A DNA stretch of 64,000 bases from Thermodesulfobacteriota bacterium (GTDB taxonomy: Bacteria > Desulfobacterota_D > UBA1144 > Nemesobacterales > Nemesobacteraceae), in assembly GCA_965116075.1 (NCBI GenBank), contig OZ220467.1, positions 684,580 to 748,579 of the forward strand. Direction: 5' to 3'. Of the stretch, positions 6,937 through 52,400 are shown piece after piece. Numbering within the stretch: the stretch's first letter is position 1; each line of letters starts with the position of its first letter. The position numbers and the translations under genes are program-made. The notes under the pieces are model-generated. The model had not been told where the DNA came from, did no database searches, and saw only the letters and a program-made list of their open reading frames with translations.

Positions 6937-7404
6937 CCAGTACTGCAGATAGCGCCCCGCAATGCCGTTTTTTTTAACGTCTGGTTGACGGTTTCGTGGC
7001 TGATTGATTCACAGATGCCAACCTCAACCGCCTCGCTTGCCAGCAGCCGTAGCGACCATTGGCCGTAGCCGACCGGTGGCGGCCCCAGCCGTAGCGCGAT
7101 CAGCGCGGCTTCCTGCCGCCCGTCCAAGAGCTTCGGTGGCCAAGTGGACGGGTCCCGTTGCCGCCCGTTGAGAGCCAACTCAAAACCTTCCAGCACGCAA
7201 CATTTACGCACGTTCGCAACAGTGCGCTCCTGACAACCATATGCCTCCGCAACCTGGTGGTCGCACCAGTTTGACCCGTCCGCATCAACTTGTAGCAGAA
7301 TACGTGCCCGGCGCGCTTTCTGACTGCTACCCTTGAGCTTCTTGATGACCTCCTGACATGTCTTGCGTTCGGCCTCCGACAGCCGCACAATGTACTTCTT
7401 CATG
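6933..7404 (-). CDS. IS630-family transposase, N-terminal HTH part (orfA); likely fused to orfB by programmed frameshift
   Basis: Begins MKKYIVRLSEAERKTCQEVIKKLKGSSQKARRARILLQVDADGSNWCDHQVAEAYG. An A8 run (plus-strand tttttttt at 6963-6970) sits exactly at the orfA/orfB junction and is a candidate slippery site. Confidence 0.7.
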
Positions 7405-7567
7405 GTGTTCCTCCTCCTTTGTTGTAGAAAGACGGCTTGGGACATGAATCCCTCGCCTTGAAACACATTATACAAGAAATGTTGCCATTGACGCAACACT
7501 AGTTGAATTTTTTCCCTTCTTTCAGCATACCCGCCCCCTCGGGAACAGGAAGGTCAAATCATCATGA

Positions 7568-27908: not shown

Positions 27909-27983
27909 ATGACTCCTGTTACTCTACCTGCTGCTGCCCCCCCCCCCCCCTTAAAAATTCAGATGCGGGGCCGAAGCGCGTGA
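27909..27983 (+). promoter_or_regulatory. 24-codon uORF (MTPVTLPAAAPPPPLKIQMRGRSA*) containing the poly-C tract; its TGA overlaps the GTG start of the giant gene (GTGA)
   Basis: ATG 27909 is in frame 3 and the stop falls at 27981-27983. Adding one C to the tract would put this ATG in frame with the signal-peptide ORF. Confidence 0.35.
27937..27950 (+). repeat. homopolymeric C14 tract 30 nt upstream of the giant-gene start
   Basis: ctgctg-cccccccccccccc-ttaaaa. It lies exactly at the GC-content boundary. Confidence 0.9.
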
Positions 27984-28453
27984 GAGACCTGCGCGGGACG
28001 CTTCGCTTGGCGGCGCTGGCCGCCGTTCTCCTGTTCGCGCTGAGCGCGGGCCTTGCGCCCCAGGCTGCGCATGCCACGTGGGGGGTCTTGACGGCCACCC
28101 CGGGCGATGGGCAGGTTACGCTGACCTGGACTTGGACGCACTCAAGACCTAACTTCAGCCACTGGTTTTTCAGGTATGTAAGAGCTGGCCAACCTTATCC
28201 CGGGTATGACTGTTTGCCTAGATTTAATATCTGCTCCATTGACGACCCAAAGTACAGACTGACAGGGGCTCATCATCGCACCCAGACGATTACCGGACTC
28301 ACCAATGGGGTCGAGTACGTGTTTGAGGTACGCGCCCATGTTCCTAATACGGTTTTGGAGGTGAGGGCGACCCCGTCGCGCTATCCCATTGCCCCGAAGG
28401 GCGTACGCGACGCCGGGAACCAGCCAGGTCACCTTGTCCTGGGACGCTCATAA
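27980..28453 (+). CDS. giant secreted repeat protein, N-terminal segment (signal peptide plus first FN3-like domain), frame 2; separated from the main frame by a +/-1 frameshift
   Basis: MRDLRGTLRLAALAAVLLFALSAGLAPQAAHA-TWG... has the n-, h- and AHA-cleavage regions of a Sec signal peptide. It is followed by an FN3-like fold (TITGLTNGVEYVFEVRA). The frame ends at TAA 28451, while frame 3 opens at 28365. Confidence 0.7.
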   Translation: MRDLRGTLRLAALAAVLLFALSAGLAPQAAHATWGVLTATPGDGQVTLTWTWTHSRPNFSHWFFRYVRAGQPYPGYDCLPRFNICSIDDPKYRLTGAHHRTQTITGLTNGVEYVFEVRAHVPNTVLEVRATPSRYPIAPKGVRDAGNQPGHLVLGRS

Positions 28454-31400
28454 CGACTCGCGCGTCACGCGCTGGGAGTACGAGCAGACCAGCGGGGGCA
28501 CAACCGGGAACTGGAAGAAGATCTCCGCGAGCAATGCCTCAACCACCAGCCACACGGTGACGGGTCTGACCAACGGCACGCGGTACGGCTTCAGGGTCCG
28601 CGCGGCAAGCGATGGTCTCGGCGCCCCGTCGGCCTCCGTGTTCGCAACGCCACGGCCCGCTCCCTGCGCTTTGAGAATTGCCAGTGTCAGTGGGCCGGGT
28701 CCGACGGTCGCGTTCCGTTGGGGGCCCACCAAGGCAAATTGCGGCGACATCAGCCGGACGCAGGTTCAGAAGAAACTCGCCAGCAGCCCGGACTGGAGCG
28801 GGAGTGTCTGGGAAACCCTGTCCACGAATTACTATCGAAACTCCGGTGTCGCATTTACCGTGGACGACACCTTGCGGGTGAGTCTTGCCGAGGGCAACAG
28901 CTACCATGTGCGCGTCCGCGCGGTCAACGAAGGCCTCACCGTCACGTCCGAGGAAGGCGTCGCCGGCCCGCCGTCCTCGGAAACTCTTCTGTGGCTCGGT
29001 CCTCCAGGGTCTCCAACCGGGCTGAAAGCCGCGCCCTTTCAGGCTGCGATCCAGCTCACCTGGAACCAGCAGGCGTCAGGACAGAAGGTGACCGGGTGGG
29101 ATGTTCGGAGGAAGGAGGGCGCCGGCAGTTACGGCGAATGGGGCCGTATTACGGGTTCCGGCGCGAACACCGTCCTCCATTCGGCGAGCGGGCTGACGTC
29201 CGGGGTCGACTACACGTTTCAGATTCGGGCGGTGAACGCCGCCGGCGACGGTCGGGCTTCCGAAGAAGTGACCGAAACGCCGACCGGCGTGACGATCTCC
29301 CAACCCGCGCTGACGGTAGAAGAAGGTAGCAGCAGCACCTATACGGTGGTGCTTGATGCCGAGCCGTCGGCCGACGTCACGGTGATCGTGGGCGGCGCTG
29401 CGGCCGGCGTGTCGGTGAATCCGCCGTCGCTGGTCTTCTCGCTGCTGAACTGGAACCAGCCGCAGACGGTCACGGTCTCCGCGGCCGAGGACGACAACGC
29501 GGTTTCCGAACCGGTGACACTGACCCACAGCGCCAGCGGCGGAGGCCTGGACTCGGTGCTCATCCGCACGGTCGTGGTGACCGTGACGGAGAACGAAACG
29601 GCCGGATTCGCCCTGTCGGAGTCCGATCTGGAGCTGGAGGAGGGCGAGTCCGGCTCCTGGACGGTGGCGCTGACCTCCGAGCCGACCGCCGATGTGACGG
29701 TCACCATCAGCGGCGCCCCGAGCGGCGTGACGGTGACTCCGCCCACGCTGACGTTCACGGCCGCGGACTGGCAGACGCCGCAGACGGTGATGGTCGCGAC
29801 GGTCGACGATGAAGACGCGGCGCCGTTGCCCGCGGTGACGCTGACCCACAGCGCGTCCGGCGGCGACTACGGCTCGCTCACCGCCTCGGTTGCGTTGACC
29901 GTGACCGAGAACGACACGGCTGGGCTGACGTTCTCGGATGGCGACAAGGAGATCAGCCAGCTGGAGGTCATCGAGGACGGGTCGGGCAACTACATGGTGG
30001 CGCTGACGTCCGAGCCGACCGCCGATGTGACGGTGACCATCACGCCGGGGCCGGGCGACGTGACGGTGCAGTCGGGGTCGCTGACCTTCACTGCCCTCAA
30101 CTGGAGCGCCGCGCAGCAGGTGGTTGTCCTCGCGGCCGATGACGACGACGCGAAGACGGATCCTGCGGTGACACTGACCCACAGCGCGTCCGGCGGCGAT
30201 TACGGCTCGGTGACCGGCGTGCTCACGGTGGCCGTGCTGGAACATGATCCGCCCAGGAAGCCCGTGAACTTCAGCGCGACGGCGGGCGACAGCCAGGTGA
30301 CGCTGTCCTGGAACGATCCGCAGAATCCCGACATCAGCGGCTGGGAGTTCCAGCAGGCCGTGCGCGGCGCCAGCTTCGGCGCGTGGACGCCCATCCCCGA
30401 TTCCGACGCCGCGACCACCAGCCACACGGTCACGGGTCTGACCAACGGCGTCTTCTACAGTTTCAAGCTCCGCGCCGTCGCCCAGCTCCGGGAGTCCCTC
30501 AGGGGGGAGAAGGAAGACGCCGAGGGCGTCAGCTCCGACGAGATCAGCGCGCTGCCGCGCCGGGTGGGCAAGAACGTCACCCTGTTCGTCTCCGACGCAC
30601 AAATTGAAGAAGGACAGGCCGGCACGACACCTGTCTTGATCCGTCTCGTTCTCGGTGAGCCGGCGCCCGCTGGCGGGCTCGGCCTCGCCTTCGAGGTCGA
30701 TGGAACCTCGACGGCAACGGCGAGCGCGCCGGTCGCGACCAGTTGCTCGGCGCCAAACCCGATGGATGCGGACATGTGCTGGCCGCGGGGCGCCCGTGTT
30801 CTTGTGCCCGCAGCCCAGGACGTTGCCGTGCATCAAGTCGCTGTCCGAGGCGACCGGGCGATCGAGCCGAACGAGACCCTCGTGCTGAATGTCGTGCCCG
30901 CCATCGATGGCTGGACCGGGGACTCGGCCACCATCACCATCGTCGACGACGAGGTGGCGCCCGCCGCGCCGACGGGCCTCGCCGCCGGGCCGCGCAACGA
31001 ACAGGCGCTCCTCACCTGGGACGACCCGCAGAATCCCGGCATCACGCGCTGGGAGTTCCAGCAGAAGGAAGGCTCGGGCGGCAGCTACGGCGCCTGGACG
31101 GCCATCCCGGGTTCCGATGCCGCGACCACCAGCCACACGGTGACGGGCCTGACCAACGGCACGGAGTACGGCTTCAAGGTGCGCGCGGTGAGCCCCCGCG
31201 GCAACGGCGCCGAATCGGCCGAGGCGACGGTGACGCCGGGAGCGGTTCCCGCCGCGCCCACTGGCTTCAGGGCGACCCCAGGCGACGCGCAGTTAGAGCT
31301 GTTCTGGGATGCTGCCCCGGACAACTCCGGCATCCTTCGTTGGGAAGTGCGGTTCAGGAAGGGCAGTGAGGACTACCAACAACCGTGGGCGCCGATCCCG

Positions 31401-34400
31401 GGCGGCGCCGCAACAACGAAATTGGGGCCGCTCACCGCTGAAAACGGCATCGTGCGCACCTACCAGTTGCGCGCAGTGAATGCCGCCGGCCCCGGAGAGG
31501 CCGCCGAACTGACCGCGACGCCGCTTCCGCCCTTGCCCCGGAAGCCGGCGGCGCTGAAGGCGACCGCTGGCAACGCGCAGGTGGCTCTCGCCTGGGATCA
31601 TCCCCCTATCGTCCCTGGGAGTGATTTGCGCAAATACGAACTCCAGCGCAAGCAAGGCGCCAGCGTCAGCTACGGCGCCTGGACGCGGGTCGACATCGTT
31701 CGGGAAGATCTGGGATTCCTTCGGTACGAGGCGCGCCATGTGGTCACGGGCCTGACCAACGGTGAGACCTACAGCTTCAGGGTGCGCGAGTTGAATGAGG
31801 CCGGCGCCGGCCCCGCATCGGACGAGGTGACGGTGACGCTGCCGGCCGTCGTGCCCGCTGAACCGACCGGAGTCCGCGCCATCGCCAGCAACCGTCAGGT
31901 GCTGCTGCGCTGGGACGACCCGAACAACCCCGGCATCACCCGCTGGGAATTCCAGGGGAAGGAAGGCCCCAGCGTCAGCTACGGCCCCTGGGCGCCCATC
32001 TCCGGTTCCGACGCTGAGACCACCAGCCACACGGTGACCGGTCTGACGAACGACACCGTCTACGCCTTCAAGGTGCGCGCCGTGAACGCGACCGGCGCCG
32101 GCGCCGCGTCTTCCGAGGTCACGGCGACGCCGATCGCCGTGCCGGCGCCGCCGTCGGGCTTCCGGGCGACGCCGGACCACCGCAGCGTGATCCTGACCTG
32201 GGACGACCCGAAGGACAGCAGCATCACGCGCTGGCAGGTACGGTTCTTGCCGGAGACAGAGGAGTTCCAGGATGCGAACTCGAACTGGCTGGACATCCGC
32301 GGTTCCGGCGCGACCACCACGCGGCACGAAGTGGGCCGCTTGCCGTCCGGCCAGATCCACCGCTTCCAGGTGCGTGCTGTCAGCAATGCCGGCGTCGGGC
32401 CCGCGTCGGACGAGGCGCTCGCCGGCCCGGCGGATCCCGGCGTGACCGTCTCGACCTCCAGCCTGACGGTGGAGGAAGGCGGCAGCGGCGAGTACACGGT
32501 GAAGCTGAACACCTCGCCCCTGGGCCGCCAGGTGGTGATCGCCGTGGCCGGCGCGTCCGGCGAGCTGAGCGCGGCGCCGGCGACCCTCACCTTCACCGGC
32601 GCGAACTGGATGGAAGCGCAGACGGTCACGGTGACCCTGGCCGAGGACGGCGACGCGCAGACCGATGCCGCGCAGACCCTGACCCACAGCGCCCGGGGCG
32701 GCGGCTACGACCATGTGGACATCGCCTCGGTGACGGTGACGCTGGCGGAGAACGACCCGCCCCTGAAACCGGCGAACTTGCGCGCCATCGCGGGCAACGG
32801 CCAGGTCATGCTGTCCTGGGACGACCCGGAGAATCCCGACATCACCGGCTGGGAGTTCGCGCAGAAGACGGGCGACGGTAGCTATGGCGGCTTCACGGCC
32901 ATTTCCGGTTCCGACGCTGAGACCACCAGCCACACGGTGACGGGGCTGACGGACGGCACGCGGTACGGCTTCAAGGTCCGCGCCGTGAGCGCCGTCGGCG
33001 ACGGCGCCGAGTCGGACGAGGCGACCGCGACCGCGGGGCGGCCGAGTCTGAGCGTGGCGGATGTGACCGCGGCCGAGGACGGCACGTTCACCTTCACGGT
33101 GACGCTGGATCCGGCGGCGCCGGCGGACGTGACCTTCAAGTACGCAGTGACCGCGGAGAGCGGCGACACCGCGACGGCGGACACGGACTTCACCGAGGTG
33201 GCGGCGACCGCGGCCACCATCTCGGCGGGCGATACCACCTTCACGTTCACGGTGACGGTGGCCGACGACAAGCTCGACGAGGACGACGAGACCTTCACCG
33301 TGACGCTGTCGGAGCCGTCCGCCAACGCCCAGCTCGGCGACGCCGCGGCGACCGGCACGATTACCGACAACGACGCCTCGCCGGTGCTGGCCGATATCGA
33401 CAACCTCACGCTCAGGCTCGGCCGGACCGTGGACATCACCGCCACGGCGACGGACGCCGACGCCGGCGACACGATCACCTACGCCTGGACGCGCAAGGCC
33501 GGCGAGACCACGCCGCCGCTGCCGAGCAGCCCGGCCCCGGACCTGGACAAGGCCCGGCTCACCTTCACCCCGACCGAGGCCGGCGTCTACACGATGACGG
33601 TGACGGCGAGCGACGGCGACAGCAACGGCAACAAGCACGGCAACACGGACACCGGGGAAGTGGTCATCACCGTGGTCGGCAAGGCCGCGGTGTCCGTGCC
33701 GGCGGCGCTGTCCGTCACCGAGGGCACGGACACGAACGCCACGGTGACGGTGACCACCGAGGAGGCGTTCGGCGAGGACGTGACCTTCGACGTGAGCTAT
33801 GGCGACACCAGCGCCACCGGAGCGACCAATGCGGCAGACGGCGACTACGACAACGACGCCGTGACGTCGGTGACGTTCTCGGGCGCCGACACCACGAAGA
33901 CCATCGCGATCCCGATCAACGACGACGGGCTCGACGAGGACGACGAGACCTTCACGGTCATCATCGCGCTGGCGGAGGGCAGCGCCCTGCCGGCCGGTTT
34001 CGCGGACGGCAACCTCACGACGACGGTGACGATCGTCGACAACGACCACTCGCCGGTGCTGCCCGACTATCCACCCACCGGAACGATCCGGGTGGGCCAG
34101 GAGGTGGATCTCTCGGCCGAGGCGACGGACGAGGACGGGGACACGGTGACGTACACCTGGACGCGCAAGGCCGGCGAGACCACGCCGCCGCTGCCGGACG
34201 GCACGAACCTGAATCAGGCCCAGCTACTCTTCACGCCGACCGAAACCGGCGCCTACACGATGACGGTGACGGCGAGCGACCCGTACGGCAACACCGACAC
34301 CGCGACGGTGGCCCTCACGGTGGTCCGAGCGCACGTGGTCTCGGCGCCGCCGGCGCTGTCGGTGACCGAGGGCACGGACGCGAACGCCACAGTGACGGTG

Positions 34401-37400
34401 ACGACGGAGGCCGTGTTCGGCGAGGACGTGACCTTCAACGTGAGCTACGGCGGCACGAGCGCGACCGGCGCGGCCGATCCGGCGAACGGCGACTACGAGA
34501 ACGACGCCGTGACATCGGTGACGTTCTCAAGCGCCGAGACGACGAAGGACATCGCGGTCCCGATCACCAATGACGACCTCGACGAGGACGACGAGACCTT
34601 CACGGTCACCGTCGCCCTGCCGGAGGGAGCCTCCCTGCCGGTCGGCTTCGCGCCCGGCAACCTCGCGACGACGGTGACCATCGCCGACGACGACCACTCG
34701 CCGGTGCTGGCGGAGATCAAGGACCGGATGGTCACGCCGGGCGATGACATCGACATCACCGCGTCCGCAACCGACGAGGACGGGGACACGGTGACGTACG
34801 CTTGGACGCGCAAGGCGGGCGAAACGCCGGCAATCCCGAACGGCACGGATCTGAACGCCGCGCGCCTGATGTTCACGCCTGAGGTCGGCGCCTACACGAT
34901 GACGGTGACGGCGAGCGACCCGCACGGCAACACGGACACCGAAGAGGTGACGATCACGGTGGCCAGCGTGGAGGCGCCGGTGCTGACCGGGGTCACCTCG
35001 ACGAGCGCCGCCGTGGTCAACCTCGCGTGGACGCACTCCGGTACGGCCCCGGGCGATTTCATCGGCGACCCCGGCGGCGCTCTGCGGATCTACTGGGAAG
35101 CGGAACATCGGCTGAAAGGCGCCGGCGACAGCGACTGGGACGATTACTCGAACGCCAGCCCCAGCGTGGGCGGAGGCAACACCCGGCGCACCATGGCGGT
35201 CACTGTTGTGAGCGATTACCCGCACGGCGCGGCGGTTGAGTGGCGGGTGCGAGCCTCGGTCGGCGGCGGTTCGCATGGTCCCTGGTCGAACGTTCGGGAA
35301 GTTACGTTGCAGAACAGCGAGCTGGCGGCGCTGACGTTCACTGGTGCGCCGGTGACGGTGGCGCCGGGTTCCAGCAAGACCTACACGGTGGCCCTGACCG
35401 AGGCGTTTGCCGGCACGCTCAGCATCACGAGTTCGGACACGGCGACGGCGACGATCAATCCGCCCAGCCTGACGTTCACGGCGCAGAATTACAACATGGC
35501 GCAGGACGTGACGGTGACCGGCGTCAAGGCCGGCAGCGCCACCATCGGCCACGCCTTCCGTCTGACCGGCGCCACGGCGGATGCGATTGCGGACGCTGGT
35601 ACGGTGGCGGTGACGGTGGTCGCCACACCCGCGGCGCCGGCGGGCCTGACGGCGACGGCGGGCGACGCGCAGGTGGAACTGTCGTGGACCGACCCGGGTA
35701 ATGCCGGCATCACCGTCTGGGAATTCCAGCAGAAGGAAGGCTCCGCCGGCAGCTACGGCGCCTGGACGGCGATTTCCAATTCGGACGCCGAGACCACGAG
35801 CCATACGGTGATGGGTCTGACCAACGACACGCTCTATGGCTTCAAGGTGCGGGCGGTGAATGGTGCGGGCGCCGGCACGGCCTCGGCCGAAGTGACGGCG
35901 ACGCCGGAGAAGCCAGTTTCGCTGAGCATTGCGGACGTGACGGCGTTGGAGAACGCGGGGACGATGTCGTTCACGGTGACAGCGGACCCGGCGCCGGCCT
36001 CGCCGATCACGTTCAGTTATAGGGTGACGGCGGAGAGCGGCAACACGGCGACGGCGGGCGTGGACTTCACGGAGGTGGCCACGGCGACCGAGTTGACCAT
36101 TGCGGCGAGCGCGACCACGGCGACGATCGCAGTGACGGTGACGGACGACGACCTCGACGAGGACGACGAGACCTTCACGGTGACGCTGTCGGGGCAGTCC
36201 GCCGGCGTGCTCCTGGGCGACGACAAGGCGACGGAGGCGATCACGGCGATGGGCACGATCACCGACGACGACCACTCTCCGGTATTGAAGGAGATCAAGG
36301 ACCAGAGGATCACGCTGGGCGAGGCCGTAGACATCACGGCGTCCGCCACGGACGAGGACGGGAACACGGTGACGTACGCCTGGACGCGCAAGGCGGGCGA
36401 GACGACGCCGTTGCTGCCGGACGGCACGGTGGAGAACGTGGCTCGCCTGACGTTTACGCCGCCCGATGTCGGTGCCTATACGTACACGGTGACGGCCTCG
36501 GACGGCAACGGCAACACGGACACCGAGGAGGTGACCATCCGGGTGGTGGCGGCCGTGACGGCGCCGGTACTGACCGGCGCCACTTCGTCGAGCGCCGCCG
36601 TGGTCACGCTCACCTGGACGCACTCCGGTACGGCCCCGGGCGATTTCATCGGCGACCCCGGCGGCGCTCCGCAGATCTACTGGGAAGCGGAACATCGGCT
36701 GAAAGGCGCCGGCGACAGCGACTGGGACGATTACTCGAACGCCAGCCCCAGCGTGGGCGGAGGCAACACCCGGCGCACCATGGCGGTCACTGTGGTGAGC
36801 GATTACCCGCACGGCGCGGCGGTTGAGTGGCGGGTGCGAGCCTCGGTCGGCAGTTCGCATGGTCCCTGGTCGAACGTTCGGGAAGTTACGTTGCAGAACA
36901 GCGAGCTGGCGGCGCTGACGCTGACCGGTGCGCCGGTGACGGTGGCGCCGGGTTCCAGCAAGACCTACACGGTGGCCCTGACCGAGGCGTTTGCGGGCAC
37001 GCTCAGCATCACCAGTTCGGACACGGCGACGGCGACGATCAATCCGCCCAGCCTGACGTTCACAGCGCAGAATTACAACATGGCGCAGGACGTGACGGTG
37101 ACCGGCGTCAAGGCCGGCAGCGCCACCATCGGCCACGCCTTCCGTCTGACCGGCGCCGCGGCGGATGCGATTGCGAACGCCGGCGCGGTGGCGGTGACGG
37201 TCGCAGCCGCCACCAAGCCCGCCGAGCCGACCGGTCTGGAGGCGACCCCGGGCGACACCCAGGTGACGTTGTCCTGGGACGACCCGGACGATGATTCCAT
37301 CACCGGGTATCGGGTACAGCGACATGGAGGAAGTCGCTGGGGCAGGTGGACAGACATCGCCAATTCGGACGCCGACACCGTGAGCCACACGGTGACGGGC

Positions 37401-40400
37401 CTGACCAACGGCACCAAGTACCGTTTCCGCATCCGGGCGGTGAACGACGTCGGTAACGGCGCCGAGTCTTCGGTGGTGCGGGCGACGCCGACGTTCGTCG
37501 AGCCTGTCACCCTCACCGCCACGGCCGGACCGCGCGGCGCCGTGACGTTGAACTGGACCGTCAAGAGCAGCAACCCCAATCGGCTGGTCAAGGGTGCCGA
37601 CCGCGTCAGCGGGTGGGAAAGCCGGTACCGGCTGAAAGGAAGACAGGACTGGAACGGATTCGTCCGCCACACAACCACCGGAGGCGATTCGCGGACCGTC
37701 TCGACGAACATGTCGGATCTCATTCCGCATGGCGGGATCGTGGAGATTCAGATCCGGCCGGCCGGTTCCTCCGGCGCCTCGGTCTCGACGCGAACAGGCC
37801 CCTGGTCGAACACGGCGACGGTCACCCTCAACGACGTGGACGACGCCAATACCGCCCTCAAGTTCACCGGTGTTCCGATCACGGTGGCGCCGGGCGAGGA
37901 TGCCACCTACACGGTCCGGCTGACCAAGCCATACGCGGCGGGTACTGTGTCAATCACGAGCGACGCCACGGGCAAGGCGACGGTGGACCCGGCGTCCCTG
38001 ACGTTCACGGCGCAGAATTACAATGTGGCGCAGGACGTGACGGTGAGCGGCGTGGAGGCCGGCACGGCGACCCTCAACCACTCGTTCCGGGTGACCGGCG
38101 CCAGCGCCGATGCGGTTCCCGACGCGGGTACGGTGGCGGTGACGGTCAGCGCGGCCCCCGCCCCCGGCGTGACGCTCTCGTCGACCGAGCTGACGGTGGA
38201 GGAAGGCGCCAGCGGCGAGTACACGGTGAAACTGGACACGGCGCCGTCGGCGAACGTGACGGTGACGGTGGGCGGCGAATCGGGTGAGGTGACGGTGGAC
38301 CCGTCTTCGCTGACGTTCACGCCGTCGAACTTCGGCACGGCGCAGACGGTTACGGTCAACGCCGGGGCTGACGAGGACACGACGGACGACACGGCGACGC
38401 TGACGCATAAGGCTTCCAGTAGCGACATGGGCTACGGCGACTCCCTGGACATCGACGATGTCACGGTCATGGTGACGGACACGACGCCGATATTGCAGCT
38501 ATTGACGGATCCTGCGGCGGTGATGGAGGGCTCGGACATCAGCCTGATGGTGACGTCGGACCGCGCGTTGACGGGCGATCTGACGGTGAGTCTGACGCTT
38601 TCGGGTCGGGGTTTGAGCGGTTTCGACGCGGACGACATCCCGGGTATGCTGGGTCCGCGGCCCTTCACCGCGTCGTTCGGCAACAGCGCCAGCACGACGG
38701 GTACGGTGACGATCCCGACCAGCACGGACTCGGATGCGGAGGGCGCGGAGACCTACACGATCACGCTGAACGACGGGACCGGCTACGCGCTCGGCGCCGA
38801 CAAGACGGCGGACGGCACGCTGAACGACCCGCCGCAGTCCACCGCGCTGAGCATCGCGGACGTGACGGCGGCGGAGGACGGGACGTTTACATTCACGGTG
38901 ACGGCGGCGCCGTCGCCGTCCTCGCAGGTGACGTTCAAGTACACGGTGACGGCGGAGAGCGGCGACACGGCGACGGCGGATACGGACTTCACGGCGGTGG
39001 CGACAGCGACCGCGGCGACCATCGCGGCGAACGCGAGCAGCGCGACGATCACGGTGACGGTAACGGACGACGCCCTCGACGAATCGGACGAGACGTTCAC
39101 GGTGACGCTGTCGGAGCCGTCGTCCGGCGTGACGCTCTCTGACGCCACCGCAACGGGCACGATCCAGGACAACGACCCCTCGCCGGCCCTGTCGATCGCG
39201 GCGCCGGCGGCGGTCGCGGAAGGCGACAGCGGTAGCGCCGATATGATATTCACGGTCACGCTGGACGCGCCCAGCGGTCGTGCGGTGACGGTGGACTACG
39301 CGGTGGATGAGACCTCGACTGCGACGGCGGGGACGGACTTCAGCGGTGGCGCCGGCACGCTAACCTTTGCGGCGGGTGAGACCAGCAAGACGATTACGGT
39401 TGCGGTTGCGGGCGACGAGTTGGACGAGGTGGACGAGACGGTGACGCTTAAGCTTTCGAACGCGACCAACGCCAGCATCGCCACCGCGACGGCGACGGGG
39501 ACAATCACGGACGACGATCCGGCCCCTGGCGTGACGGTTTCCGTCTCCGAACTGACGGTGACGGAAAGCAGCACCGCCAACTACACCGTGGTGCTGAATA
39601 CGCGGCCGGCGGGTGAGGTGACGGTCACGCCGCGCAGCGACGACCCCGGAGCGGCGACGGTGTCCGGTCCGCTGACCTTCACCCGCTTTAATTGGAACAG
39701 GCCCCGGACGGTGACGGTCACGGCGGTGCCGGATGGCGATACCGGCGACGAGAGCGTCACTGTGAGTCATGCCGTGACCGGCTACGGTAGTGTGAGCGCG
39801 GCCCCGTCCGTATCGGTGACGGTGACGGACACGACGCCGACGCTACAGTTATCGACGGATCCGGCGGCGGTGACCGAGGGTGAGGCGATCAATCTGACAG
39901 TGACATCGGACAAGGCGCTGGCGGGTGGTCTGGCGGTGAGTCTGACGCTGGAGGACCGTGACACGAGCGGTTTCAAGGCGGAGGACATCCAGGGATCCTT
40001 GGGTCCGCGCGACTTCATCGCATCCTTCGGCGCCACCGCCAGCACAACAGGGACGGTGACGATCCCGACCAGCACGGACTACCTTGAGGAGGGCCAGGAG
40101 ACCTACCGAATCACGCTGAACGAGGGCGCCGGCTACGCGGTAGACGAGGACAACAACACGGCCGACGGCGCGCTGAACGATGGCACGCCGGCCCTGGGCG
40201 CCGGTGCGATTGCGCTGTTCATTTCGGACACGGAGGCGGCGGAGGGCGAGAAGATGTTGTTCACGGTGTCGGTGGCGCCGGCGTCGTCCTTGCCGATCAC
40301 GTTCAAGTACACGGTGACGGCAGAGAGCGGCGACACCGCGACCGCCGGCTCGGACTTCACGGCGGTGACGATGCCGATGGAGGCGACGATTGCGGCGAGC

Positions 40401-43400
40401 GCGACGAGCGCGACGATCAGCGTGTCGCTCCTCCAGGACACCGAGGTCGAGGGCGACGAGACGTTCACGGTGACGCTGTCCGAGCCGTCTTCGGGCGTGA
40501 CGATCACGGATGCGACGGCGACCGGAACGATCGCTGACGACGACGAGGGCATCGCCAGGCCGACCTCGTTGCGCATCACGGCGGTGGAGGACGCGATCAC
40601 GCTGCGGTGGACCGCCCGGACCGACCCCGAGATCGACAAGTGGCAGTACCGGTTCAAGAACAAGGAGCGCAGCTGGCGCGGCTGGAACCCGTTTGATGTC
40701 AGGAACAGCACGGCGTCGACCCGATCCGTCACCCTGAACAAGAGGGGTACATTGCACGGGGGCGTGGGTCAGTATCAGGTCCGGGCGGTGGTTGTCGTCC
40801 CGATCCGGCCGGAGTTTGGCGGAGGCGAGGAGGAGACCTTCGGTCCGTGGTCGGAACTGGCGGAGGTGAGCATTGTCAACACCGACAACCTGGGTCTGGA
40901 GTTCAGCGGCGGCGGGATCACGAGGACGGGAGGCGCCAGCGTTGCCTGGAACGCAAGCGTTGCGCAGGATGCCAGCATAACCTATGGCGTGAGGCTGAGC
41001 GCCGCGGCGCTGCCCTACCTGGATCGGACGGCGGAGGTGACGCTGACGGGCGGCAGCGGTGTGCGGGTAAGCCCGGCCTCGCTGACGTTCACCCGTGCCA
41101 CCGCCCGGACCGCGCAGCCGGTGACGATCACGGGGGTTGCCGCCGGCAGCGCCGCCATTGAGCACGCCGTCCGTTTTCCGGCGCTGGCGCTGCTTGATCC
41201 CGCGGGGACGATTGCGGTGACGGTGACGGAGGAGGAAGCGGTGTCGCTGAGCGTGGCGGACGTGACAGCGGCGGAGGGTGGTACGTTTACGTTCACGGTG
41301 ACGGCCAATCCGGCGCCTTCGGCAGAGGTGACGTTCAAGTACAAGGTGACGGCTGAGAGCGGTGACACGGCGACTGCGGATACGGACTTCACGGTGGTGA
41401 CGACGGCAACGGCAAAGACGATTGCGGCGAACGCGAGCAGCGCGACGATCACTGTGTCGGTGACGGACGACACCCTGGATGAGGCTGATGAGACGTTTAC
41501 GGTGACGTTGTCGGACCCGTCCTCCGGGGTGACGCTCTCGGACGCCACCGCAACAGGCACGATTACGGACAACGACGATCCGCCTGCTCTGTCGATCGCG
41601 GCGCCGGCTACGGCGGTTGCGGAAGGCGACAGCGGCAGCGCGGATATGACGTTCACCGTCACGCTGGATGCGGCCAGCGGTCGTGCGGTGACGGTGGATT
41701 ACGCGGTGGATGCGACCTCGACTGCGACTGCAGGGACGGACTTCAGCGGTGGCGCCGGCACTCTAACCTTTGCGGCGGGTGAGACCAGCGAGACGATTAC
41801 GGTTGCGGTGACGGGCGACGAGTTGGACGAGGTGGACGAGACGGTGGTGTTGAAGCTTTCGAATGAGAGCAACGCCACGATCCCCACTGCGACGGCGACG
41901 GCGAGTGGAACGATAACGGATGACGACGCATCGCCGGTGCTGGCGGCGCTGACGGCTCAGACGGTGACGGTCGGCGAGGACGTGGACATCACGGCGTCGG
42001 CAACGGACGGAGATGGGGACACGGTGACGTACGTCTGGACGCGCAAGGTGGGCGAGACGACGCCGGCGATTCCGAATGACACTGTGCTGGACGAGGATCA
42101 ACTGACGTTCACGACGACGGCGCCGGGCACGTACACGATGACAGTGACGGCCTCAGACGGCAACGGCAACGAGGACACCGAGACTGTGACGATCACGGTG
42201 ACGACGTCCACAGTCATGGCGGCGCCGTGCAGGATTGCGATTTCGTCGTTGAGTAGTCCGAATCAGCGGATACTGTTTGTGACGGTGAGCGTACCGGCCA
42301 ACTGCGGACCAGTTCCGAAGGCGGAGATACAGGTCAAGACCGCGGCTCAGGAGTGGAGCGACGTGTCCTGGATTGCCTTGGGGAACCTGGCCCTGTCCAA
42401 CAGCGATCAGCCGCAGACGGTCTCTAGAGTGTTCAACCTGTCGCCACCGGGCCTTCCGCCGCTGACGGGTTTGCGCAATGTGCGGGCGCGGGCGCTCAAC
42501 GGGGATAAGGCGGGTCCGGAATCGGTGGTTGCGCACATCTGGTTTGGTCCGCTGTCGCAGCCGGCAGGTTTGCAGGCGGTGGCGGGCAACCGGCACGTGA
42601 AGTTGAGTTGGACGGACGCGGCGAACCCGACGTTGACGGGTTGGGAGTACCGACAGAAGCCGGATGGCGGTGAGTACGGCGAGTGGACGGCGATGAGCGG
42701 TTCCGGCGCGGGGACGACCAGTTATCCGGCGCCGGGGCTTACGAACGGTACGGAGTACGCGTTCCAGATTCGCTCAAGGAGCGGGAGCGCCGCCAGCGCG
42801 GCTTCTTCGGAAGTGACGGCGACGCCGACGGGGGGCGTACCCAGGCAGCCGGAGCTCACGTCCGGCGAGCCGGGCGACGGTCAGGTACGGGTGTTGTGGC
42901 GCGCCCTTGGGGACCCGAGCGTGACGAAGTGGCAGTCGCGACGGAAGCTGGACAGCGCTACCAACTGGCCTGATACCTGGATGGACATCAGCGGTTCCGA
43001 TGCGGAGACGACGAGTCATACGTTCACCGGTCTGACGAACGGTACGCCGTACGCGTTCCAGGTCCGCGCGGTGAACGACCAGGGCGCGGGTCCGGCTTCG
43101 ACGGGTTTGAGCGCGACGCCGAGCGTTGAGCCGTTCGTGAGGCCTGTGGGCGTGGCCGCGAAGGCGGGCAATGGTCAGGTGACGCTGTCATGGACGGACC
43201 CGGGCAACGCGTCAATCACGAAGTGGCAGTATCGTTGGAAGCTTGCCAGCGTGAGCGCTTGGGGCGCGGTGAAGGACGTGTCCGATTCGGATGCGGAGAC
43301 GACGAGCGTGGAGGTGACGGGGCTTACGAACAGCGCGGCGTATGACTTCCAGGTGCGCGCGTTCGGTACCGTGAGTGGTTACTGGTCGTTGGTGGTGTCG

Positions 43401-46400
43401 GCGACGCCGCTTACGCCGCCTGGGGCTCCGCAGAACCTGGCGACGAGTGACGGCGACGGTCAGGTGATATTGCGGTGGCGTAATCAGGGTGATAGTACGA
43501 TCACCGGCTGGGAGTACCGGCAGAAGCCGGATGGCGGTGAGTACGGTGAGTGGATGGCGATCGACGGTTCCGGTTCGGGGACGACGACCCACACGGTGAC
43601 GGGGCTTACGAACGGCACCCGGTACACGTTCGAGGTGCGCGCGGAGAACGGCGGTGGCAAGGGGGCGTCGTCGGAGGTGATGGCGACGCCGGTACGGGGT
43701 CCTGCCGAGGCGCCGACGGGTTTCACGGTGACGCCGGGGGACGGTCAGGTGACGTTGTCTTGGGACAGTTCGGATGATGATCGTATCAGCCGCTGGAGCT
43801 ACCGGCAGAAGGCGGGCGACGGCGAGTACGGCAGGTGGACCGCTATTCCGGGTGATGCGACGACGACGAGCCACACGGTGACGGGGCTTACGAACGGCAC
43901 GAAGTACACGTTCCAGGTTCGGGCGTGGCAGAAGGACAGTGTGGCGGGCAAGTCTACCGCCGGGATCACAGTGACGCCGACGCCGGCCCCAGCGACGGCG
44001 GTTTCGCTAAGTATCGCGGATGCGACGGTAGCGGAGGCTGCGGGTACGATGTCGTTCACGGTGACGGCGACTCCGGCGCCGAGTTCGCTGATAACGTTCC
44101 AGTACGCGGTGACGGCGGAGAGTGGGAACACGGCGACTGCGGGTACGGATTTCACCGGGGTGTCGACGCCGACTGAGGTGACGATTGCGGCTAACGCGAG
44201 TAGCGCGACGATTGCGGTTGCGGTGACGGACGATGTTCTGGTAGAGGGTGATGAGACGTTTACGGTGACGTTGTCAGCGCCGTCTGCCGGAGTGACGATT
44301 TCCGATGCTACGGCGACGGGTACGATCACCGATGACGACTTCTTGCCGGGCAAGCCTGCGGGATTTGAGGCGACGGGAGGCAACGCTCAGGTGGCCCTGT
44401 CGTGGGACGATCCGGAGGACGCGAGCATCACGCGTTACGAGTTGCAGCAGAAGGAGAGGAGCAACGCCTGGGGTTCGTGGACTGCGATATCGGATTCGGA
44501 CGCGGAGACGACGACCCATACGGTGACGGGACTGGATAACGGCAGTGAGTATCGCTTCCGCATCCGTGCGGTAAACCCGAGCGGCGCGGGCGCGCAGTCT
44601 TCGGTGGTGAAGGCGACGCCGCAGGCGAATCCCGCAAAGCCTGTGCTGACGGCGACGGCGGGCAACGCTCAGGTGACGTTGAGTTGGCAGTTGCAGCCGG
44701 GCATTGCGATCGCGACCTGGACGTATCAGTACAGCAGCGACGGCGGTTCTACGTGGAGCGCGTCGCAGACGGTGACGGGCGCGAGCGCGACGAGCACGGT
44801 GGTGACGGGGCTTACGAACGACACGGAGTACGCGTTCCGTATGTTCGCTGCGGTGGGTCCGGGCGCGCAGTCCGCGTGGTCGGACTTTGTGAAGGCGACG
44901 CCGAGGGCGCCGGCGCCTGCCGCCCCGGCGAATTTCAGCGCGAGTCCCGGCAACGCCCAGGTGAAGTTGACGTGGGATGATCCTGAGGACGCGAGCATCA
45001 GCGTCTGGCAGTTGCGCTACGGCAAGCAGGGTGAGGACTGGGGTTCATGGAAGAGGATGTCGGGATCGGACGCGAGCACGACCACTCACACGGTGACGGG
45101 TCTTGAGAACGGCAGCGCGTACCGTTTTCGGATTCGGGCGAAGAACAGCAGTGGCTTGGGCGCGCGGTCGCCTGCGGTGACGGCAACGCCCCGGGTGCTG
45201 GTGAAGCCTGTGGTGACGGCGCAAGCGGGCGACGGTAAGGTGACGTTAAGCTGGTCTGCGCAGCCGGGTTCCGGCGTGACGGCCTGGGTCTACCAGTCGA
45301 GTAGCGATGGTGGTTCTACGTGGAGCGCGTCGCAGACGGTGACGGGCGGCAGCGTGACGAGCGTGGTGGTGACGGGACTTACGAACGACACGGAGTACGC
45401 GTTCCGTATGTTCGCCCGCGCTGGCAGCGCGCAGTCTTCGTGGTCGGACCATGTGAAGGCTACGCCGAAAGCGGCATCGCTGAGCGTTGCGGACGTGACG
45501 GCTGCGGAGGATGGCGCGTTCACATTCACGGTGACGGCTGATCCTGCGCCGGCCTCGGAGATCAGTTTCAAGTACACGGTGACGGCGGAGACCGGCGATA
45601 CGGCGACTGCGGGTACGGACTTCACGGCGGTTACGACAGCGACGGAGAAGACGATTGCTGCGAACGCGACCAGCGTGTCGATAACGGTGACGGTGACGGA
45701 TGATGATATTGACGAGGACAATGAGACGTTTACGGTGACGTTGTCAGAGCCGTCCTCCGGGGTGACGCTCACCGACGCTACGGCGACGGGTACGATAACG
45801 GACAATGACACGGCGGGCGTGACGATCTCGCCGACCTCGCTGACGGTGGAGGAAGGTGATAGCGGCGAGTACACGGTGGCGCTGGACACGGAGCCGACGG
45901 CGGACGTGACGGTGACGGTGGGCGGAGAATCAGGCGAGGTGACGGTGGACCCGTCTTCGCTGACGTTCACGTCGTCGAACTACGGCACGGCGCAGACGGT
46001 GACGGTGAGCGCCGGGTCGGATGCGGACGCGACGGACGATACTGCGACGCTGACGCATGAGGCGTCCGGCAGCGACACGAACTACGGCTCGTCGCTTGAC
46101 ATAGACGAAGTCTCGGTGACGGTGACGGACACGACGCCGACGTTGCAGTTATTGACGGACCCTGCGGCGGTGACGGAGGGGACGGCGATCAGTCTTTCGG
46201 TGACGTCGGACCGGGCGCTGACGGGTAATCTGACGGTGAGCCTGACGCTTTCGGGCCGTGGTTCGAGCGGTTTCGATGCGGACGACATTCCGGGCGGGTT
46301 GGGTCCGCGTGACTTCACCGCATCGTTTGGCAACACCGCCGGCAGGACGGGCGTGGTGACGATCCCGACCAGCACGGACTCGACCACGGAGGGCGCGGAG

Positions 46401-49400
46401 ACATACCGGATCACGCTTAGCGATGCCGACGGCTATGCGGTTGGCGACGATGTGACGGCTGACGGCACGTTGAACGACGGCGCGGCGACGCCCTGCAAGG
46501 TGTCGGTGACGAACTACCGCGCGATTGACGACAGTGGTTTTCTGCCGGTTTACTCGATTTCGTTCGGTTTGCGGATACCGGCGAACTGTGGTCCGATCAC
46601 GGGGATGCAGCGTCAGATCAAGACCTTGAGTCAGGGCTGGGGCGATGTGGAGTGGGTGGACCTGGAGAATGCGGGTCTGCGTACGTTTGCTAACAGCGCC
46701 ACTGCCAGGACGCCTTCCGGAATCGAGCTGGTCTTCCTGAATTCCGGCAGCGGCAAGCATCAGGTTCGGGTGCGCGCGCAGAACGGCGCGCGAGTCGGTC
46801 CGGCATCCGACGAGGTGTCGGTGACGTTCGAAGTCCCGCCCACACCGAGCGGGCTGAGCGCGACCCCTGGCGCTGCCTCGGTGACGCTGACCTGGAATGC
46901 GCAGTCCGGGGAGCAGATCACGTCGTGGAACGTCCAGTACAAGCGGGGTTCCGAGTCGTACCGGAACCTGCACGTGGCGGATGCCGGGGACGGCAGCACG
47001 ACGACGGCTACGGTGACGGGTCTGTCGGCAGAGGAGTACACGTTCCGTTTGCAGGCTAGGAACGAGAACGGTCTGAGCGCGGCCTCGTCGACGGTGACGG
47101 CGACGCCGACAGCAGCGACCGTGGTTCCGCCCGCTCCGACGGGCGTGAGGGCGACGGGGGGTGACGGCGAGGTGACGCTGTCGTGGACCGACCCGCAGAA
47201 CGATACGATCACGAAGTGGCAGTACCGGCAGAAGACGGGTAGCGGCGCTTACGGTGAGTGGACGGACCTTGAGCACAGCCGGACACGTAGCGCGTTTCCG
47301 ACGCTGACGGGTACGGTTGGTGATCTGACGAACGGGAGTTCGTATACGTTCGAGCTTCGCGCGGTGAACGGTGTCGGCGCTGGCGCGGCTTCTTCTGAGG
47401 TTACGGTGACGCTGGGCGCGGATGCGGATGCGGTATCGCTGAGCGTTGCGGACCTGACGGCGGCGGAGGGCGGTACGTTCGCGTTCACGGTGACGGCGAC
47501 GCCTGCGCCGGCCTCGGAGATCAGCTTCAAGTACACGGTGACGGCGGAGACCGGCGATACGGCGACTGCCGATACGGATTTCACAGAGGTTGATACGGCG
47601 ACCGAGGTGACGATTGCGGCGAACGCGACCACGGCGACGATAACGGTGTCGGTGACGGATGACGATCTTGATGAGGACAATGAGACGTTTACGGTGACGT
47701 TGTCAGAGCAGACCTCCGGGGTGACGCTCTCTGACGCCACTGCGACAGGGACGATAACGGATGATGATAATTCCCCGGTATTGGAAGATATAGAGGATTT
47801 AACGATAAGGCTGGGGCAGTCGGTGGATATAACTGCGGTGGCGACGGATGCGGACGACGATGACATCGGCTATGTCTGGACGCGTAAGTCCGGGGAGACG
47901 TCCCCTGCGATACCTGGTAGCGCGGATCTGGAAGTGGCTCGGTTGATGTTCAAGTCTACCTCGGTGGGTACGTACACGATGACGGTGACCGCATCTGACG
48001 GCAATGGGAACAGCGATACGGAGGAAGTGGAGATCACGGTGGTACGGGCGCGCGTGGTCTCGGTGCCGGCGACGCTGTCGGTGGCGGAGGATGATGGCGA
48101 TGCGGTGGTGACGGTGACGACGGAGGGCGCGTTTGGTGAGAATGTGACGTTTAACGTGACGTACGGTGGTACGAGCGCGACGGGGCACAACGACCCTGCC
48201 AGCGGCGACTATGACAATGATGCGGTGACGGCGATAACGTTTGGAGCGGGCGACCTGACAAAAGACATTGAGGTGCCGATAACGGATGATAATCTTGAAG
48301 AGGCTGATGAGACGTTCACGGTGACGATTGCCCCTGCGACCGCCACGCTGCCTGATGGTTTCGCAATGGGAGATGCCACGACGACGGTGACGATAGAGGA
48401 CAATGATACGCAAGCGCCGTGTAAGGTGGAGGTGGTGGATGTATCAACGACGGCGGATGCCAGTCCGTTCCCCGGCGGTCAATCAATTTACTCAATATCG
48501 TTTAAGGTGAGGATACCTGCGGATTGCGGCGCTATAACCAATATGCAGAGGCGTATAAAGACGAACGGGCAGTGGGGTGAATGGACGGATAATGAGGTGT
48601 TGCGCAGTTTTGCTGACAGCGCTACGGCAAGGACGCCTGCGGAGATGGAGTTGATACTCGTAGCGGATGGTAGCGCGAGGGAGGTGCAGGTTCGGGCGTT
48701 AAACGGTAGTAAGACAGGTCCTGAGTCAGAAGCTGTTGGCGTCACGTTTACCGCGCCGGGCAAGCCGGGTGGTTTGAGCGCTACAGGCGGGGCTGGTTCC
48801 GCAGCGTTGAGTTGGGATGGGCAGACGGGAGAGCAGATCACGGCATGGGTGGTGGAGTACAAGCGTGGTTCAGAGAGTTATAAGAGTAAGGTGATAGTGG
48901 ATGCTGGAGATGGTAGCGCTACAGCGACGACTATCACGGGTTTAGCGTCTGAGGAATACACTTTTCGTATAAAGGCGCGTAATCCAAACGGAGACAGTCC
49001 TTATTCAGATGAGACGACAGCTACGCCAGAGGCGGTGACCGCTGCTCCTGCGGCGCCGACGGGAGTGACGGGCAGTCCGGGGGACGGGGAAGTGAGGTTG
49101 GAGTGGGCAGACCCAGAAGATGCGAACATAACGAAGTGGCAATATGAGCAGAAGGCCGGTAGCGGCGCTTATGATGGGGCTTGGACGGACATCACGGTAT
49201 CAAAGAGCGGATCTCTTTCCAGGTTAACGGGTACGGTCACGGGTTTGACAAATGGCGTCAGTTATACGTTTAAGGCGCGCGCGGTGAATAGCGCGCTAAA
49301 TAGCGCTGTCGCCGGCTCGGGCAACGGCGCGGAATCGGATGAGGTGACGGTAGTGCCGATAGCGGCGCCGACGGGATTAACGGTGACGCCTGCGGGCAGT

Positions 49401-52400
49401 GGCAAGTTGCGTTTGAGGTGGACGGCGCCGACGGATGCGTCCCGTACGGGATGGGAGGTTAGGCACAGGGCGTCTGGAGGTGAATGGGGTGAGTGGGCTG
49501 CCATAACGGGCGCGGGTACGACGAGTCATCTTCTTACGGGATTAACGACGGGGACTTACTACAGGGTGCAGGTTAGAGCGGTGAACGGTAATGTAAAGAG
49601 CGCGACGGCGTTTGGTACTGCGGAGGTGAGAGGGACCGTATCGTTGAGCGTTGCGGACGTGACGGCTGCGGAGGATGGCGCGTTCGCATTCACGGTGACG
49701 GCGACGCCTGCGCCGGCTTCGGATATAAGCTTTAAGTACACGGTGACGGCGGAGAGTGATGACACTGCGACTGCGGGTACGGACTTCACGGCGGTTGAGA
49801 CGGCGACCGAGGTGACGATTGCGGCGGGTGAGACCACGGCGACGATAACGGTTGTGGTGACGGATGATGACATTGATGAGTCGGATGAGACGTTCACGGT
49901 GACGTTGTCAGACCTTCCGGAATGGGTGGAGTTGGGTGATCCCACCGCGACAGGGACGATAACGGACAACGATGAGACGCCAGCGCCGTGTAAGGTGGAG
50001 GTGGTGGATGTATCAACGACGGCGGATGCCAGTCCGTTCCCCGGCGGTCAATCGATTTACTCAATATCATTTAAGGTGAGGATACCTGCGGATTGCGGCG
50101 CTATAACCAATATGCAGAGGCGTATAAAGACGAACGGGCAGTGGGGCGAATGGACGGATAATGAGGTGTTGCGCAGTTTTGGGGACAGCGCTACGGCAAG
50201 GACGCCTGCGGAGATGGAGTTGATACTCGTAGCGGATGGAAGCGCGAGGGAGGTGCAGGTTCGCGCGTTAAACGGTAGTAAGACAGGTCCTGAGTCAGAA
50301 GCTGTTGGCGTCACGTTTACCGCGCCGGGCAAGCCGGGTGGTTTGAGCGCTACAGGCGGGGCTGGTTCCGCAGCGTTGAGTTGGGATGGGCAGACGGGAG
50401 AGCAGATCACGGCATGGGTGGTGGAGTACAAGCGTGGGTCAGAGAGTTATAAGAGTAAGGTGATAGTGGATGCTGGAGATGGTAGCGCTACAGCGACGAC
50501 TATCACGGGTTTAGCGCCTGAGGAATACACTTTTCGTATAAAGGCGCGTAATCCAAACGGAGACAGTCCTTATTCAGATGAGACGACGGCTACGCCGGGC
50601 GCGGTGACCGCTGCTCCTGCGGCGCCGACGGGAGTGACGGGCAGTCCGGGGGACGGGGAAGTGAGGTTGGAGTGGGCAGACCCAGAAGATGCGAACATAA
50701 CGAAGTGGCAATATGAGCAGAAGGCCGGTAGCGGCGCTTATGATGGGGCTTGGACGGACATCACGGTATCAAAGAGCGGATCTCTTTCCAGGTTAACGGG
50801 TACGGTCACGGGTTTGACAAACGGCGTCAGTTATACGTTTAAGGCGCGCGCGGTAAATAGCGCGCTAAATAGCGCTGTCGCCGGCTCGGGCAACGGCGCG
50901 GAATCGGATGAGGTGACGGTAGTGCCGATAGCTGCGCCGACGGGATTAACGGTGACGCCTGCGGGCAGTGGCAAGTTGCGTTTGAGGTGGACGGCGCCGA
51001 CGGATGCGTCCCGTACGGGATGGGAGGTTAGGCACAGGGCGTCTGGAGGTGAATGGGGTGAGTGGGCTGCCATAACGGGCGCGGGTACGACGAGTCATCT
51101 TCTTACGGGATTAACGACGGGGACTTACTACAGGGTGCAGGTTAGAGCGGTGAACGGTAATGTAAAGAGCGCGACGGCGTTTGGGACTGCGGAGGTGAGA
51201 GGGACCGTATCGTTGAGCGTTGCGGACGTGGAGGCTGCGGAGGATGGCGCGTTCACGTTCACGGTGACGGCGACGCCGGCGCCGGCTTCGGATATAAGCT
51301 TTAAGTACACGGTGACGGCGGAGAGTGATGATACTGCGACTGCGGGTACGGACTTCACGGCGGTTGAGACGGCGACCGAGGTGACGATTGCGGCGGGAGA
51401 GACCACGGCGACGATAACGGTTGTGGTGACGGATGATGACATTGATGAGTCGGATGAGACGTTCACGGTGACGTTGTCAGACCTTCCGGAATGGGTGGAG
51501 TTGGGTGATCCCACCGCGACAGGGACGATAACGGACAATGATGAGACTCCTGCGCCGTGTAAGGTGGAGGTGGTGGATGTATCAACGACGGCGGATGCCA
51601 GTCCGTTCCCCGGCGGTCAATCGATTTACTCAATATCGTTTAGGGTGAGGATACCTGCGACTTGCGGCGCTATAACCAATATGCAGAGGCGTATAAAGAC
51701 GAACGGGCAGTGGGGCGAGTGGACGGATAATGAGGTGTTGCGCAGTTTTGGGGACAGCGCTACGGCAAGGACGCCTGCGGAGATGGAGTTGATACTCGTA
51801 GCGGATGGTAGCGCGAGGGAGGTGCAGGTTCGGGCGTTAAACGGTAGTAAGACAGGTCCTGAGTCAGAAGCTGTTGGCGTCACGTTTACCGCGCCGGGCA
51901 AGCCGGGTGGTTTGAGCGCTACAGGCGGGGCTGGTTCCGCAGCGTTGAGTTGGGACGGGCAGACGGGAGAGCAGATCACGGCATGGGTGGTGGAGTACAA
52001 GCGTGGTTCAGAGAGTTATAAGAGTAAGGTGATAGTGGATGCTGGAGATGGTAGCACTACAGAGGCGACTATCACGGGTTTAGCGCCTGAGGAATACACT
52101 TTTCGCATAAAGGCGCGTAATCCAAACGGAGACAGTCCTTATTCAGATGAGACGACGGCTACGCCAGAAGCGGTGACCGCTGCTCCTGCGGCGCCGACGG
52201 GAGTAATGGGCAGTCCGGGGGACGGGGAAGTGAGGTTGGAGTGGGCAGACCCAGAAGATGCGAACATAACGAAGTGGCAATATGAGCAGAAGGCCGGTAG
52301 CGGCGCTTATGATGAGGCTTGGACGGACATCACGGTATCAAAGAGCGGATCTCTTTCCAGGTTAACGGGTACGGTCACGGGTTTGACAAACGGCGTCAGT

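Follow-up and report, generated by a model that had tools for sequence, protein, structure and literature searches.

What kind of domain recurs, with a pair of cysteines each time, along a giant bacterial protein that otherwise has almost none? The question is raised by a contig of a Thermodesulfobacteriota bacterium (OZ220467.1, assembly GCA_965116075.1), of which we analysed 64,000 nucleotides (positions 684,580 to 748,579 of the forward strand; hereafter the window), and in particular by a giant open reading frame (ORF) that runs off its end. An earlier reading of this DNA, made from the letters alone (the sequence-only reading), had noted six copies of a two-cysteine module, taken it for a disulfide-stapled variant of the FN3 or Ig fold, and suggested that it might be an uncharacterised family. 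The module is a divergent FN3 subfamily and not a new fold, and it probably serves as a stapled domain at the head of FN3 runs in giant surface proteins.

A recurrent module in a giant, cysteine-poor protein

The module and its surroundings are laid out in the window as follows.

28365..63998, + strand: giant open frame (frame +3) of at least 11,878 amino acids (codons), with no stop within the window
28656..29021, + strand: two-Cys FN3-variant module, copy 1 (aa 98-219; Cys101/Cys126, spacing 25)
42219..42569, + strand: copy 2 (aa 4619-4735; Cys4622/4647, spacing 25), with a PKD-like domain before it and five FN3 after it
46485..46853, + strand: copy 3 (aa 6041-6163; Cys6044/6075, spacing 31), with Calx-beta before it and two FN3 after it
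48411..48773, + strand: copy 4 (aa 6683-6803; Cys6686/6721, spacing 35), in the first unit of the tandem repeat
49980..50342, + strand: copy 5 (aa 7206-7326), 99% identical to copy 4
51549..51911, + strand: copy 6 (aa 7729-7849), 97% identical to copy 4
48367..53110, + strand: tandem repeat of three units of 1,566-1,569 nt, each with a Cys module, three FN3 and a Calx-beta, at 97-98% DNA identity

Besides the six modules, Pfam and locally iterated profiles resolve the giant ORF into a mosaic of some 51 canonical FN3 domains, roughly 45-55 Calx-beta domains and about 11 that are PKD-like, and its protein is rich in Thr, Ala, Gly, Ser, Val and Asp. The earlier statement that it is nearly free of cysteine was borne out, since there are 14 Cys (0.12%) in its entire length, all of them in seven close pairs (aa 101/126, 794/805, 4622/4647, 6044/6075, 6686/6721, 7209/7244 and 7732/7767). 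If 14 cysteines are placed at random, seven pairs within 36 residues were obtained in 0 of 200,000 trials, and an analytic estimate puts the chance at about 1e-10. The two-Cys modules account for six of the seven pairs; the canonical FN3 domains of the same ORF have no cysteine, against two invariant ones in each module. The seventh pair, at 794/805, lies in another kind of module and had been overlooked by the sequence-only reading.

The recurring module itself is real. The codons of the first Cys (nt 28665, 42228, 46494, 48420, 49989 and 51558) fall within 5 nt of where they had been placed, and the peptides quoted for the copies are found in the translation. Six copies are indeed present, but the tandem repeat accounts for an identity of 97-99% among copies 4-6, which leaves four independent module sequences and not six. 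The near identity of the repeat units indicates, as far as sequence can tell, a recent expansion or an ongoing homogenisation. The best internal match of each module is another two-Cys module, and the four independent sequences share 25-51% pairwise identity. Chance or a recent-duplication artefact as the source of the module is ruled out by identities of 25-30% with both Cys invariant. A spacing of about 35 residues had been claimed for the cysteines, which holds for copies 4-6 (35) but not for copies 1-3 (25, 25 and 31), nor for the family at large, in which the spacing ranges from 24 to 36.

A divergent FN3 subfamily

Structure prediction and profile comparison converge on the same superfamily. 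AlphaFold2 models of copy 1 (multiple sequence alignment of the six window sequences; predicted local distance difference test score (pLDDT) 80, predicted template modelling score (pTM) 0.73) and of copy 4 (alignment of 18 family sequences; pLDDT 89, pTM 0.79) are both beta-sandwiches whose structural neighbours in the PDB are FN3-fold domains; in a Foldseek search against the PDB, the top 50 matches were all FN3, with probability 1.0. In hhalign, the modules matched an alignment of the 51 canonical FN3 domains of the giant ORF at 96.3% (E 1.9e-9), with module columns 16-105 on FN3 positions 11-87. The same comparison gave 0.9% against the ORF's own Calx-beta alignment and 0.5% against its PKD-like alignment, and Pfam found no Calx-beta (PF03160), PKD or Big match for any module. 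A hidden Markov model of the 51 canonical FN3 domains, from whose training the two-Cys modules were excluded, detects five of the six modules at 6-13 bits, compared with 77-123 bits for most canonical copies. A profile search of the PDB returned only FN3 matches, among which L1CAM and contactin FN3 domains reached an E of 1.5e-6. At the level of fold, then, the models predict a seven-strand beta-sandwich of FN3 topology, and at the level of homology, the profile-profile match is significant; FN3-like models together with an FN3 profile match show the module to be an FN3-fold domain homologous to its neighbours. The sequence-only reading had named a confident profile match to an already described family, such as PKD or Big, as what would refute it. 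Taken strictly, such a match exists, to FN3, and there is none to PKD or Big.

The divergence is concentrated at one end. The module has about 110-135 residues, some 25-45 more than the roughly 88 of the canonical FN3 copies, and its C-terminal two-thirds (strands C to G, with the F-G signature VRVRAxNGxxxGPxS) are ordinary FN3, while its N-terminal ~40 residues are recast as a longer and variable A-B beta-hairpin. The first Cys immediately precedes strand A (xPC[KRQ]ΦxΦ), and the second immediately follows strand B (ΦP[AS][ND]CG). The family consensus (AAPCKIEIANVRAVGSRSLEFKVTIPANCGDITKVEIQIKT…VRVRALNGSEAGPASEEVSVWLG) can be set against that of the canonical FN3 domains (KPTGLSATAGDGQVTLSWTDPEDSSITKWEVRQKK…YTFRVRAVNSSGAGAASDEVTA): in place of the canonical N-terminal motif P.xP.gL.a..g.gqVtLsW the module has xPC[KRQ]ΦxΦ…ΦPANCG, the N-terminal P-x-x-P-x-x-L is not kept, and the B-strand Trp (…LsW) is lost, with F, Y, L or V there. 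The pair also differs from that of classical Ig domains, in which strands B and F carry the cysteines, at a distance of about 55-75 residues, whereas those of the module lie before A and after B, 24-36 residues apart.

Could a module that diverges this far be a new domain family unrelated to FN3? The Pfam fn3 model (PF00041, gathering threshold 25 bits) reaches its threshold for 0 of the 18 module copies tested; copy 1 is the best in the window at 16.8 bits and the other window copies have no fn3 match (copy 2 is without any Pfam match), while across the 18 family members there are two weak matches only (E at least 0.012). A scan of NCBIfam found nothing relevant to the module. The PDB profile matches are confined to module positions 44-115, and the first ~40 residues therefore have no sequence counterpart in the PDB. 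These points are what an unrelated family would predict, yet in view of the models, the Foldseek neighbours and the profile match to the neighbouring FN3 domains, we regard that explanation as highly improbable. What does stand of the proposed uncharacterised family is that no Pfam or NCBIfam model covers it and that it forms a separate score class; it is nonetheless a subfamily inside the FN3 superfamily, with no new fold.

That score class emerged when 1.84 billion representative proteins were searched exhaustively with HMMER, which gave 880 matches, mostly generic multi-FN3 proteins matching the C-terminal half of the profile. When the best 150 listed proteins were re-scored, the full-length matches above 31 bits all had exactly two Cys, and those below 25 bits were ordinary FN3 domains with none. 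This yielded 15 further copies, in proteins P0006 (four), P0010 (three), P0015 (two), P0016 (two), P0023 (one), P0068 (two) and P0079 (one). The alignment of 18 copies has a mean column identity of 33%, and the positions that never vary in it are the two Cys and, in the FN3 F-G core, R95, G103 and S106. The Cys pair is kept without exception in 28 divergent copies, which belong to at least nine other giant proteins, in metagenome-assembled genomes (MAGs) of six lineages. A searchable signature results (xPC[KRQ]ΦxΦ, 15-30 residues, ΦPANCG, VRVRAxNG), which marks an FN3 subfamily that present Pfam and NCBIfam models miss and also tags rare giant secreted proteins of uncultured bacteria in several phyla. 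Knowledge of the FN3 fold itself is left unchanged.

The cysteine pair and the place of the module

How the cysteines are likely to behave depends on where the protein goes, and the start of the gene is informative in this respect.

27980..28453, + strand: short ORF in another frame, with a Sec-type signal peptide (…LFALSAGLAPQAAHA) and the first FN3
28403..28408, + strand: 2-nt deletion relative to the orthologous locus L002 (GGCGT--ACGCG against GGCGTCACCGCG)

In L002, which is 93.9% identical to the window in DNA over 7.9 kb, the part encoding the signal peptide is continuous with the giant ORF; in the window, the signal-peptide ORF is split from it because the 2-nt deletion shifts the frame. 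The deletion may mark an inactivation that happened very recently, a phase-off state or an error of sequencing, and the giant ORF stays open for more than 35 kb beyond it. The first FN3 has a Cys pair of its own at 28205-28240 (PGYDCLPRFNICS, 7 residues apart), which is absent from the orthologue P0152, where PYHEYNVVRGIGS is found instead.

In the model of copy 4, strand A (residues 7-20) and strand B (24-35) form a long hairpin with a register of i+j ~44 and a pLDDT of 96 in both blocks, and if this register is extrapolated, Cys4 faces residue ~40, next to Cys39. The variation in Cys spacing across the family falls in the turn of this hairpin, as judged from the 18-copy alignment. Given a Sec signal peptide and a remainder nearly devoid of cysteine, the simplest reading would be that a single disulfide closes the base of the A-B hairpin, and one intradomain disulfide, formed in the periplasm or outside the cell, is most likely. 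Of the earlier proposal of a disulfide-stapled FN3 or Ig variant, the FN3-fold part is upheld by the models, Foldseek and hhalign, and the disulfide is a prediction from the invariance of both Cys, the Sec signal peptide and the hairpin register of the copy 4 model. The invariance of both Cys would be explained equally well by any essential chemical role, and the copy 4 model appears to place them close to the N-terminal pole, possibly exposed to solvent, so one might suppose that the pair instead links molecules covalently, into oligomers or to a partner, or binds a metal. Yet there are exactly two Cys per module, always together, the alignment offers no conserved His, Asp or further Cys to complete a metal site, the predicted hairpin register brings the two together, and the other Cys pairs of the giant ORF are likewise short closed loops; we think it quite unlikely that the cysteines act between molecules or on a metal. 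Two further chemistries were tried and rejected: lipidation of the first Cys at a lipobox, as an L-x-x-C context is missing and the majority of copies are internal, and a Cys-Gln thioester, as the 18-copy alignment has no invariant Gln.

The position of the module is as regular as its cysteines. The sequence-only reading had it always before an FN3 run, and this is so for 6 of 6 copies in the window and for 21 of 22 complete instances overall, in which a canonical FN3 follows. What precedes it is a signal peptide, an FN3, a Calx-beta or a PKD domain, and in P0006, P0015/P0151 and P0016 the mature protein opens with the module, which follows the signal peptide. From this consistent lead position, we infer the role of a stabilised lead or cap FN3. 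On this model, the disulfide would close the base of the A-B hairpin and tie the incoming linker to the pole of the BC loop, the stapled FN3 would head FN3 runs in giant rod-like surface proteins, and the variable hairpin may in addition present a binding surface.

We consider it probable, overall, that the module is a disulfide-stapled, divergent FN3 acting as a structural lead or cap domain at segment junctions and at the N-termini of giant surface proteins. Several observations weigh against this reading. Most FN3 runs of the giant ORF have no two-Cys leader, and the module is therefore not needed to start an FN3 array; it has no known ligand or partner; in the model of copy 1, which is of lower confidence, the register leaves the two Cys not exactly opposite each other; and the gene is frameshifted from its signal peptide, so that the window copy may not be expressed. 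A different emphasis would make the module chiefly a ligand- or host-binding domain, with the A-B hairpin and the C'-E loops as its recognition surface and the disulfide only rigidifying it, without any structural cap. Length and sequence vary most in precisely the A-B hairpin and the C'-E region of the 18-copy alignment, the module is the outermost N-terminal domain in the proteins just named, and at least one carrier lineage, Ca. Poriferihabitaceae, has been reported from a sponge metagenome (PMC12859430). Copies 4-6, however, are buried inside a tandem structural repeat, the module contains no known binding motif, and a weakly constrained structural domain would show variable loops too; recognition as the chief function seems to us unlikely. 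If the disulfide forms, one conserved staple in a protein of ~12,000 aa that is otherwise Cys-free would be a useful handle for studies of export and folding, and also for the engineering of stabilised FN3 scaffolds.

Carriers, gene context and related systems

Proteins that carry the module are rare (each 90% cluster has 1-2 members), and several are encoded on contigs of 2-3 Mb. Two word-indexed homologue searches gave no match and missed the parent protein as well, which makes such an index uninformative for this family. A genome scan with one single module gave no match; a scan seeded with a subgroup of four closer sequences from the 18-copy alignment found nine loci in MAGs, labelled Pseudomonadales (two), Thermoanaerobaculia, Ca. 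Binatia, Ca. Multivorans (three), Thermodesulfobacteriota and Ca. Poriferihabitaceae. Both Cys are kept in 9 of 9 of these copies. The names of the records suggest a sponge habitat for the remaining carrier lineages as well. The region of copy 3 (window 45455-47761) is 83-85% identical in DNA to the loci of the Pseudomonadales, Thermoanaerobaculia and Binatia MAGs. Among the loci L003-L006, segments of the giant gene in the Thermoanaerobaculia and Ca. Binatia MAGs are 98.9% identical over 4.4 kb, and the Pseudomonadales MAG is 94% identical to both. Such near-identical segments in different phyla imply either recent transfer between phyla or artefacts of assembly or binning on repeated giant genes, as far as the sequences go.

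Composition sets the giant gene apart from its surroundings, and the step coincides with a homopolymer.

27937..27950, + strand: poly-C tract (C14), ~30 nt before the GTG start, at the step in guanine-plus-cytosine (GC) content from 43% to ~68%

The GC content of the window rises from ~0.43 to 0.65-0.70 at roughly 27,950-28,000, and third codon positions of the giant ORF have a GC of 0.66-0.88, decreasing along the gene, compared with 0.38-0.48 in ten upstream housekeeping genes. A chimeric contig was suspected from the GC jump with poly-C at the junction. This was largely rejected, as a circular MAG locus, L001, shows the same GC contrast, with steps exactly at both ends of the ORF, and likewise a poly-C tract. 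There is no such contrast in L002, whose host has ~60% GC. By these measures, the codon usage of the giant gene is foreign to its host. Homopolymers stand upstream of the start in both related loci, C9 in L001 (2984-2992, ~10 nt before the ATG) and G23 in L002 (9832-9854, ~150 nt upstream). The homopolymer tract suggests a candidate slipped-strand phase-variation (contingency) switch of the surface protein. The window also contains a transposase-like ORF pair in two copies (222 aa, ~90% identical by eye; 6268-7499 and 8449-9117), with a local GC of 0.53 in a flank of 43%, and an ORF resembling an integrase or transposase at 3565-4122.

These observations invite a broader scenario, in which the two-Cys FN3 would be the signature of mobile genes for giant FN3/Calx-beta/PKD surface proteins, swapped between phyla in the microbiomes of sponges or similar hosts and switched by poly-C, and the stapled, hypervariable A-B hairpin would serve in host recognition, perhaps as a mimic of host matrix or aggregation factors rich in Calx-beta/FN3. 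We offer it as a speculation that has only a small chance of being right. The sharing of segments across phyla, the upstream homopolymer and the foreign codon usage may prove more interesting than the module itself.

The seventh Cys pair of the giant ORF belongs to a separate module.

30552..30965, + strand: Cys-loop module (giant ORF aa 730-867; Cys794/805, CSAPNPMDADMCW)

This module is not recognised by Pfam. Its motif, a short loop C-x2-4-P-x4-9-D-[IM]-C-[WY], marks it as an apparent Calx-beta-like variant outside the two-Cys FN3 family, and modules of its type recur in P0068 (four times), P0079 and P0152. At the other end of homologous giant proteins, the C-termini of P0016, P0151 and P0007 are Gly/Ala-rich over ~300-400 aa, show beta-like segments in alternation and finish with an aromatic residue; by eye they look like an outer-membrane barrel. 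Pfam gave no match on the C-termini of P0016 and P0151 at E up to 0.01, the autotransporter barrel PF03797 included, and the claim of an autotransporter barrel for the homologues was dropped because Pfam did not confirm it for these two.

Disulfides in FN3 domains also occur in the class I cytokine receptors, eukaryotic proteins whose cytokine-binding module has an FN3 domain (D1) with two disulfides at a spacing of ~10 residues and a partner domain bearing WSXWS. The module described here, in contrast to D1, has one Cys pair, 24-36 residues apart, which brackets the whole A-B hairpin, and it has no detectable sequence relation to D1 beyond generic FN3.

The architecture of the carriers resembles that of giant Gram-negative adhesins, in which extender arrays are made of BIg, Calx-beta or FN3 domains, as in SiiE (PMC6272769). 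The likeness lies in very large, repetitive and Cys-poor proteins of beta-sandwich modules, with specialised domains set among the extenders. SiiE-type adhesins, however, are exported by type I secretion, lack a Sec signal peptide and owe their stability to Ca2+ and not to disulfides, whereas the protein of the window has a Sec signal peptide. Other bacterial multi-FN3 proteins (P0048, P0066, P0123 and P0126) do have one conserved Cys pair per repeat, 31-32 residues apart (GGTCSAAV…YSDSxC), although the motif and the Cys positions are different and there is no full-length match to the module profile. Given this other kind of Cys-pair FN3, Cys-stapled FN3 domains seem to have arisen more than once.

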